Below are positions 28,454 through 28,812 of a stretch of 32,000 nt of DNA, in pieces (the stretch's first letter is position 1; each line of letters opens with the position of its first letter). Both the position numbers and the translations under genes were made by a program. Source of the stretch: Sinorhizobium meliloti. GTDB taxonomy: Bacteria > Pseudomonadota > Alphaproteobacteria > Rhizobiales > Rhizobiaceae. Below the pieces are notes generated by a model, which saw only the letters and a list, made by a program, of their open reading frames with translations, did no database searches and was not told the DNA's origin. Location: assembly GCF_017876815.1 (NCBI RefSeq), contig NZ_JAGIOS010000001.1, positions 810,001 to 842,000 on the forward strand, read 5' to 3'.

Positions 28454-28812
28454 CCGGGGAGCGCCATCCCCGGTCTATGGGTTTGCGAAGGGAGAGACGA
28501 CATCTCCCTTGGCTCGAAGCCGGTGCCGAAACACCGGTCGTGGTCCAGGATGCGAAAGTCCTGGCCGTGGTTTGCAAAGGGGCGCGGAAGCCCCTTGTGC
28601 GATGGGTTCCAAGGGAGAGCGGCAGTCTCCCTGGTCGTGATGCAACGCCGAGACGTTGCCATCAGCCGGAAGGGTTCGATACCCGCACCCGGCTGAACGC
28701 ATCCCTTGGCAAGACGCCGCCACGAGCGGAGTCGCGCCTTACGGGATGCCCCAGGGGGGTCTGCGGGGGACAGGATGGTCCCCCCAGCAAGGTGAGCGCG
28801 GTACTACCGCGC
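28454..28812. other. Hairpin-dense non-coding block (candidate ssDNA promoter / single-strand initiation site or structured RNA)
   Basis: At least nine short GC-rich stem-loops of 6-8 bp occur in about 360 nt:
- 28454-28473 CCGGGGA/TCCCCGG
- 28488-28510 AAGGGAGA/TCTCCCTT
- 28520-28537 CCGGTG/CACCGG
- 28545-28564 CCAGGA/TCCTGG
- 28567-28586 AAGGGGC/GCCCCTT
- 28612-28633 AGGGAGA/TCTCCCT
- 28642-28659 GCAACG/CGTTGC
- 28765-28784 GGGGGAC/GTCCCCC
- 28796-12 (28796-28812) GCGCGGT/ACCGCGC

All six frames give only overlapping Arg/Pro/Gly-rich ORFs. Confidence 0.4.

Follow-up and report, generated by a model that had tools for sequence, protein, structure and literature searches.

The 730-nt intergenic region between an accessory gene and an SprT-like gene in the window (the whole 32,000-nt stretch of Sinorhizobium meliloti DNA that was analyzed) contains a block of 12-13 hairpins that are maintained by compensatory substitutions. 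On the best reading, the block is a structured, cis-acting part of an extended oriT that belongs with a relaxase of the MOBQ/MOBP type and a ribbon-helix-helix module. As to function, we propose tentatively, and with less than even confidence, that the transferred strand of this extended oriT folds as a hairpin array, probably serving as a single-strand initiation signal. The features of the region are listed in Table 1.

Table 1 Features of the hairpin block and of the mobilization region around it, in window coordinates
Feature	Position	Strand	Remarks
Relaxase, 573 aa	26283..28004	-	Pfam PF03432, E 1e-18; MobA/VirD2-like nuclease domain
Ribbon-helix-helix accessory protein, 110 aa, MobC/NikA-like	28012..28344	-	Weak Pfam NikA-like match, E 0.003
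Left inverted repeat (IR-L)	28372..28413	.	Contains CCGCGCGCTTTCCACG at 28379-28394; likely binding/operator site by the mob genes
Conserved multi-hairpin block, whole element	28445..28824	+	1.0-1.7 bits/position against 0.2-0.5 in the flanks; nhmmer matches
P1 hairpin, CCGGGG/CCCCGG	28454..28473	+	93% canonical pairs
P2 hairpin, GGGAGA/TCTCCC core	28485..28513	+	Near-duplicate of P6; stem base covaries GC to CG, core invariant
P3 hairpin, loop CCGAAA	28520..28537	+	Longer branched inserts instead in some clades
P4 hairpin, loop GCGAAA	28545..28564	+	100% paired; both-side changes in 4/7 pairs
P5 hairpin, GCAAAGGGGC/GCCCCTTGTGC with bulge	28574..28600	+	P5-like hairpin retained in pTF4.1
P6 hairpin, second GGGAGA/TCTCCC	28609..28634	+	Near-duplicate of P2
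P7 hairpin, GCAACG/CGTTGC	28642..28659	+	96-100% paired
P8 stem enclosing P9	28663..28695	+	Both-side changes in 6/7 pairs
P9, GGGT-TCGAT-ACCC (GGGTTCGATACCC)	28672-28684	+	Both-side changes in 4/4 pairs
P10 stem, GCATCCC/GGGATGC, enclosing P11	28699..28749	+	Poorly aligned by MAFFT
P11 variable hairpin	28708-28738	+	Sequence differs from S. meliloti copy, hairpin kept
Invariant G-run, no partner assigned	28754..28759	+	
P12 hairpin, 10 bp, bulged C	28761..28787	+	94.7% paired; both-side changes in 7/10 pairs (94 copies)
P13, 15-bp hairpin, conserved internal N-A mismatch	28788..28820	+	Most conserved part; 99% Watson-Crick
Conserved 3' flank of P13, consensus TACnnATCnCTAT	28821..28836	+	Candidate nic region (inferred); conservation ends here
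Extended -10-like motif TGCTATCAT	28857..28865	-	Points through the block towards the mob genes
Two ATGTRCAT palindromes	28887-28894, 28921-28926	.	Probable operator sites
Right inverted copy (IR-R), CGAGGAAAGCGCGCGG	28950..28965	.	15/16 complementary to 28379-28394
Third ATGTRCAT palindrome	29031-29038	.	Also between P13 and SprT
SprT-like zinc metalloprotease gene	29076..29774	+	Pfam PF10263, E 1e-11; variable right-hand neighbor

The block is sharply delimited. Weighted conservation runs at 1.0-1.7 bits/position across 28445-28824, peaks at 1.72 bits in the 3' arm of P13, and falls to 0.7 bits over the next ten bases and then to 0.3. Conservation is low (0.16-0.39 bits) in the spacer that leads from the left inverted repeat to P1, and about 250 poorly conserved nucleotides with palindromes of their own lie between the block and the SprT-like gene. 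An earlier note, made from the sequence by a model, had described a non-coding and highly ordered segment of at least nine hairpins at 28454-28812. The structure and its place were borne out, but the hairpins delineated (P1-P13, between 28454 and 28820) number 12-13 rather than nine, and the conserved limits extend to 28445-28824. With dinucleotide shuffles as the control, 28440-28830 folds as RNA at -216.7 kcal/mol on the plus strand (z -8.3) and at -204.9 kcal/mol on the minus strand (z -7.5), and 28445-28830 folds as DNA at -109.2 kcal/mol (plus, z -7.0) and -107.5 kcal/mol (minus, z -7.1). None of the shuffles folded as well as the native sequence in any of these four runs. The block is non-coding: column entropy by codon position (0.62/0.70/0.64) is without three-base periodicity, and most indels among homologues have lengths not divisible by three (154 against 1418). 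An ORF at 28444-28860 was rejected as coding on these two grounds and on the stops that interrupt it in most homologues; none of the reading frames is open throughout in most copies.

The earlier note had expected that homologues would reveal whether the hairpins are conserved through compensatory changes, and they are. In a 41-sequence alignment combined with a manual structure, standard pairs occupy 90.2% of cells and 31 pairs have changed on both sides. None of 500 column shuffles reached the observed pairing values, and pairing fell to 37-52% when partners were slid by one to three columns as a control. The clearest helices are P4, P8, and P9. Pairs were counted in MAFFT and nhmmer alignments, with the P12 counts taken from a 94-sequence alignment of the 3' end of the block. 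P13, which at 15-16 bp is the longest stem of the block, has compensatory changes at two positions (G-C to A-U and C-G to U-A), and its pair types comprise 1247 Watson-Crick pairs against 3 G-T and 3 A-C.

Hairpins have been gained and lost as modules between subfamilies. Longer or branched inserts stand in place of P3, P7, and P11 in some clades, and distant members of the family retain only P6-P13 or P12-P13. The copy on S. meliloti pSymB has the same gene order and a core that is ∼88% identical, with both flanks diverged. A miniature version, made up of a P5-like hairpin, the G-run, P12, and P13, sits beside mobC on pTF4.1, a 4.1-kb plasmid of A. ferrooxidans; the relaxases of pTF4.1 and the window are 38% identical.

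Several short sequences recur within the block. As the earlier note had reported, AAGGGAGA...TCTCCCTT hairpins are found at 28488-28510 (in P2) and 28612-28633 (in P6), and GGTTTGC(G/A)AAGGG is present twice, at 28480-28492 and 28569-28581; GGTTTGCRAAGGG is a repeated motif of the block. Five to seven of the loops share a CGAAR motif, and a similar linker, GGTCG(A/T)NG, follows each of six hairpins. A reading of the loops as cUUCGg is not conserved, since the closing base varies while CGAAR is kept. The sequence at 28672-28684 that had been likened to a T-loop is indeed there, but as P9 it folds into a stem of 4 bp and a loop of 5 nt, closed by a pair that covaries from U-A to C-G. A tRNA-like element was rejected because ARAGORN reported no tRNA in 28454-28812 and because P9 is not a cloverleaf with a 7-nt T-loop.

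Pairing beyond the local hairpins is limited to one candidate, a pseudoknot between the P12 loop (28772-28774) and the linker at 28751-28753. Complementarity here is 70% as against 48% in shuffled controls, and in alignment A5 the same positions are only 60% paired. An all-against-all scan for column covariation, which was swamped by clade structure, yielded no credible long-range helix other than a hint of this P12-loop/linker contact. Long-range pairs proposed by RNAalifold from the full MAFFT alignment (G-run with C-run, linker with linker) were set aside as probable artefacts arising from gappy columns and from motifs that recur.

A search of the whole window against Rfam 15 gave no match at gathering thresholds, in keeping with the earlier suggestion of a novel structured element; RsmW gave the best alignment below threshold, scoring 19.7 bits where gathering requires 52 (E 0.76). 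The literature searches that were run brought up no account of the element. The block thus has no described RNA family, and its size, its number of covarying hairpins, and the breadth of its distribution are unusual. Its position and the role proposed for it mark it as a variant of familiar elements, namely the oriT accessory region and the sso.

Homologous copies were found at ∼155 loci in Alpha-, Beta-, and Gammaproteobacteria and in metagenomes, always in a single orientation. Among 80 genome loci fetched through the SprT protein family, nhmmer detected the element in 61, and in a plasmid locus as well, with constant orientation. The genome loci that bear it are exactly those with the relaxase pair upstream, and it is absent from the other SprT loci. 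A scan unbiased by SprT was made by searching metagenome contigs for the P13 hairpin pattern, which gave 94 loci. The accessory protein and/or the relaxase lies on the left in all 64 loci with at least 1 kb of left flank, while of the 73 loci whose right flank is long enough, 42 have the SprT-like gene there. In the remaining 31 it is replaced by a TraG/VirD4-type coupling protein (T4CP), a Fic protein, an unknown protein, or opposite-strand genes. This difference in linkage indicates that the block belongs to the oriT/relaxase module, and SprT is one among several interchangeable neighbors. PLSDB contains copies only in two near-identical S. meliloti pSymB entries, and no copy was found in phage records or IMG/VR.

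The ribbon-helix-helix gene adjoins the relaxase gene in all loci, and the relaxase itself continues beyond its MobA/VirD2-like nuclease domain into a coiled-coil, low-complexity tail. This relaxase family is scarce on plasmids (12 records), which points to integrated mobilizable elements, and the carrier of the mob module is best read as an integrative mobilizable or conjugative element. On the other side of the block, the N-termini of homologues make 29076, and not 29031, the most likely start of the SprT-like gene. The ArdC relationship that had been suggested for its product was not established, the SprT-like family PF10263 being the only Pfam family past the cut-off.

In MOBQ/MOBP origins, the relaxase binds an inverted repeat that is found on the 5' side of nic in the transferred strand. 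Because conservation peaks at P13 and drops sharply ∼10 nt after it, P13 is most likely the hairpin that the relaxase recognizes, and nic would lie a few bases to its 3' side. Another candidate for the nic region is found left of P1, where IR-L is followed by GCGAGGGTYCC; for the related pTF1 origin, the literature searches gave no mapped nic site. The block resembles MOBQ/MOBP origins (RSF1010/R1162, RP4, R64, and pTF1-type) in lying directly upstream of a divergent accessory-relaxase operon, in having a strong inverted repeat (P13) with a short conserved flank where conservation stops, and in being overlapped by promoter-like and repeat sequences. Those origins have one nic-proximal repeat and measure ∼40-100 bp, or up to ∼400 bp with protein sites, whereas the block has ∼340 further nucleotides and eleven or twelve extra hairpins in which pairing, not sequence, is conserved. 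The repeats at 28379-28394 and 28950-28965 that bracket the block are probably sites for the accessory protein, to judge from their sequence. At the position of IR-L, other clades have two to three direct CCTCGCG repeats, and at that of IR-R, other loci have tandem CGAGG or CGCGAGG repeats.

Watson-Crick pairing is strand-neutral, so only wobble pairs are informative as to which strand folds. In the well-aligned helices of 84 copies, 111 G-T and 36 A-C combinations were counted on the plus strand beside 4775 Watson-Crick pairs. Wobble pairs are ∼2% of all pairs, and at several positions the plus strand has G-T in 10-16 of the 41 copies. Predicted stability is better for the plus strand in 40 of the 41 copies. 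These observations support the plus strand as the folding strand but do not prove it: the asymmetry is only ∼3:1, the copies are phylogenetically related, and the G-rich composition of the plus strand alone favors its predicted folding. The lagging region is where relaxase genes are normally found (PMC11541004), and by this relaxase-last rule only, the plus strand is expected to be the one transferred. A strand that is expected to be transferred, is favored to fold, and has no plausible promoter upstream is what we would expect of a folded domain of the transferred DNA strand.

The proposed mechanism runs as follows. The relaxase would recognize P13, and nic would lie in the P13 3' flank. P1-P12, just 5' of nic, would fold in the plus strand once it becomes single-stranded, and the folded array would act as an orientation-specific, sso/ssi-like single-strand initiation signal. 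This signal could recruit host priming for synthesis of the complementary strand, either in the recipient or as the excised element replicates by rolling circle. There is precedent in ICEBs1, which has a functional, orientation-specific sso of several stem-loops near oriT, and in rolling-circle plasmids, where the usual place for an sso is directly upstream of the nick (PMC4595007). Known sso elements (ssoA/ssoU/ssoT; ICEBs1 sso1, PMC4595007) are, like the block, non-coding stretches of a few hundred bases with several stem-loops, placed beside oriT or the dso in fixed orientation to the nick site, although for the block the position of nic is inferred. By analogy, the block would solve the same problem, the conversion of transferred single-stranded DNA to duplex. 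The likeness is one of layout, with no sequence relationship found to any characterized sso or ssi; the block, moreover, occurs in Proteobacteria and has twelve short GC-rich hairpins in place of about three long ones. Priming sites of the G4 and phiX174 types are also hairpin clusters in single-stranded DNA that serve primase or PriA with no strong sequence consensus, but at 50-140 nt with one to three hairpins they are unlike the block. The candidate pseudoknot and the high conservation of the single-stranded linkers would be less expected of DNA than of a folded RNA, and we counted them against a DNA reading.

Promoter-like sequences to the right of P13 raise another possibility. In 34 of 136 distinct copies (11 expected), TGnTAnnnT occurs on the minus strand 23-37 nt after P13, as compared to 2 of 136 on the plus strand. 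The only sigma-70-like site that a consensus scan placed in the spacer is also on the minus strand, at 28926-28897, and pTF4.1 has TATAAT on the same strand and in the same place as the minus-strand motif. From these motifs, the mob operon is probably transcribed from beyond P13 and through the block. A minus-strand promoter-like motif that points into the block means that a complementary RNA is probably made, and this RNA could itself be the functional molecule: a ∼480-nt structured 5' leader of the mob operon, with its promoter right of P13, that would control the stability or translation of the mRNA for the accessory protein and relaxase. RSF1010 offers a parallel, as its oriT overlaps mob promoters that are autoregulated by the Mob proteins (PMC2200642), and the minus strand of the block folds almost as well as the plus strand when taken as RNA. 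We nevertheless consider such a leader, the main rival of the reading proposed here, unlikely. The wobble counts favor the other strand by 111 to 36, a minus-strand RNA would have A-C mismatches in 10-16 of 41 copies at several positions, the strict promoter motif is missing in three quarters of copies, and the canonical cUUCGg loops that this strand would form are not conserved.

The strict linkage to the relaxase pair would also fit hairpins that served the mechanics of the relaxosome and not priming. Extruded or folded DNA might help to melt oriT, mark the end of a transfer round for the relaxase, or be read by the coupling protein. The six hairpins with a GGTCG(A/T)NG linker recall the HUH enzymes, which recognize a hairpin plus a 3' single-stranded motif, and the inverted, binding-site-like repeats on both sides of the block point the same way. 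What makes this explanation rather doubtful is that it leaves the keeping of twelve hairpins unexplained, when a single nic-proximal inverted repeat suffices in known MOBQ/MOBP origins.

Transcription of the plus strand fares less well. An independent structured non-coding RNA of ∼380 nt, which might regulate the mob leader as an antisense transcript or might bind protein, would account for the preference of wobbles and folding energy for this strand, for the candidate pseudoknot between the P12 loop and linker 28751-28753, and for the conserved single-stranded linkers and the CGAAR loops; with no match in Rfam, it would be new. The consensus scan found no plausible promoter-like site on the plus strand upstream of the block, however, and in some clades only ∼75 GC-rich nucleotides separate the accessory-gene ATG from P1. 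No intrinsic terminator was found after P13, G-U accounts for only ∼2% of pairs, and hairpins come and go as modules between subfamilies. Protein-titrating small RNAs of the CsrB/RsmW type are likewise hairpin arrays with a recurring short loop motif, but the motif in the block is CGAAR and not GGA, promoter and terminator are absent, and the RsmW alignment is sub-threshold. An independent plus-strand RNA is accordingly improbable.

The earlier note had favored a single-strand promoter of the Frpo type in the leading region, driving early expression of SprT. In promoters of this type, the stem of a long imperfect hairpin reconstitutes -35 and -10 hexamers spaced ∼17 bp apart. Like the Frpo and ssi elements of the F and ColIb-P9 leading regions, the block adjoins oriT and is highly structured, and it would be folded single-stranded DNA used by host enzymes; some plasmids do carry such promoters in their leading regions (PMC11541004). 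We regard this model as very improbable all the same, as a promoter consensus scan of 28440-28830 found no -35/-10-like pair on either strand, no stem exceeds 16 bp, 31 of the 73 element-bearing loci lack SprT, and the ∼250 poorly conserved nucleotides separate SprT from the block. Gene direction is also wrong. Genes of known leading regions use the transferred strand as template (PMC11541004), but SprT, like the T4CP genes that replace it elsewhere, reads away from oriT, which would make the transferred strand the SprT sense strand. The supposed leading position is doubtful too. Judged by conservation, nic would be 3' of P13, and the block would probably trail nic and be the last DNA to enter rather than the first, an outcome that the earlier note had itself named as a refutation. 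What survives of this proposal is that the block most plausibly acts single-stranded beside oriT, with a priming site as a viable role and a promoter for SprT not.

For the conversion of incoming mobilizable and conjugative islands from single-stranded DNA to duplex, the one well-tested ICE example known to us, sso1 of ICEBs1, comes from Bacillus and not from Proteobacteria. Joined to oriT in more than 150 elements, the conserved hairpin array offers a concrete candidate for this step that is open to experimental test. It implies that folding, and not sequence, can be what is conserved over a large part of an oriT, a point that bears on the computational annotation of origins and leading regions and on deciding the strand and the island end that go in first. 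Should RNA instead prove to be the functional molecule, the block would define a new class of large structured RNAs linked to conjugation. A bolder interpretation, which we think a good deal less probable than not, is that the block represents a new class of folded nucleic-acid module, either a ∼380-nt domain of the transferred DNA strand or a large pseudoknotted non-coding RNA that controls mobilization. Proteins of the element or of the host that read the DNA form might load priming enzymes, protect the strand end, or activate a DNA-dependent SprT-like protease on the relaxase-capped strand. Either form, if true, would be a conserved structured element without a described family across the mobilizable islands of Alpha-, Beta-, and Gammaproteobacteria.

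Many such elements, including that of the window, bear defense cargo. Upstream of the block, the defense-type cargo of the window comprises a RES-domain protein, an AAA ATPase beside a subtilase, a type I restriction-modification system, and DUF2971 and DUF7678 proteins.

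Within the hairpin array at oriT, P2 and P6 have a common GGGAGA/TCTCCC core that is invariant and shows no covariation, while the neighboring stems covary. When the region was folded with DNA parameters, the 5' arm of P2 paired with the 3' arm of P6; given this cross-pairing and the shared invariant core, the two hairpins may exchange partners, or both may be read as sequence by a protein. A run of five to seven G just 5' of hairpin P12 is nearly invariant as well, and no partner is assigned to it in the structure.

The whole block and the putative promoter region are enclosed by a 16-nt inverted repeat matching at 15 of 16 positions; in other clades the left side has CCTCGCG direct repeats and the right side has tandem copies of CGCGAGG. 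Repeats placed on both sides of oriT in this way look like accessory-protein sites. The three ATGTRCAT/TGTACA palindromes are conserved across many loci, S. meliloti among them, and probably serve some regulator as operator sites.

Features of the region, by window position
Feature	Position	Remark
RES-domain protein	within 11487-25617	
DUF2971 and DUF7678 proteins	within 11487-25617	
Peptidase_S8 (subtilase-family) protein	12694-15279	861 aa
ARAGORN "tRNA-Pyl"	14584-14676 (+)	93 nt, anticodon CTA
AAA ATPase	15254-16312	overlaps Peptidase_S8 protein
hsdR	16696-20121	type I R-M
hsdS	20146-21294	type I R-M
hsdM	21291-23498	type I R-M
Inverted repeat, left arm	28379-28394	
Hairpin P2	28485-28513	
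Hairpin P6	28609-28634	
G-run	28754-28759	
Palindromes	28887-28894, 28921-28926, 29031-29038	between P13 and SprT start
Inverted repeat, right arm	28950-28965	
SprT-like gene	29076-29774	

At its C-terminal end the SprT-like protein has a conserved CPxC...C..H motif, likely a zinc ribbon. Proteases of the SprT/Spartan type depend on DNA for their activity and target DNA-protein crosslinks; if the SprT-like protein acts as they do, a crosslink protease beside a relaxase-capped strand would be an intriguing pairing. In a metagenome subfamily (L085, L088, L110, L117, L126, L132, L164, L174 and related loci), P13, the last hairpin of the array, is followed by GTGCTCACTGYCGTTCGCA, and the nhmmer match to the element profile is restricted to the 5' third of the model. 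Several of these loci, such as L110, L132 and L174, have a TraG/VirD4 coupling protein in place of SprT as the right-hand gene.

A miniature element consisting of a P5-like hairpin, the G-run, P12 and P13 directly adjoins mobC in A. ferrooxidans pTF4.1 (NC_001520.1, locus L176), occupying ~130 nt upstream of that gene, with a TATAAT ~30 nt beyond the element on the mobC-sense strand. This small mobilizable plasmid may make a handy experimental model.

Adjoining the mob module in the window is defense-island-like cargo (11487-25617), in which the type I R-M system is complete. The tRNA-Pyl call there is probably a false positive because it sits inside the subtilase-family ORF, on the opposite strand.
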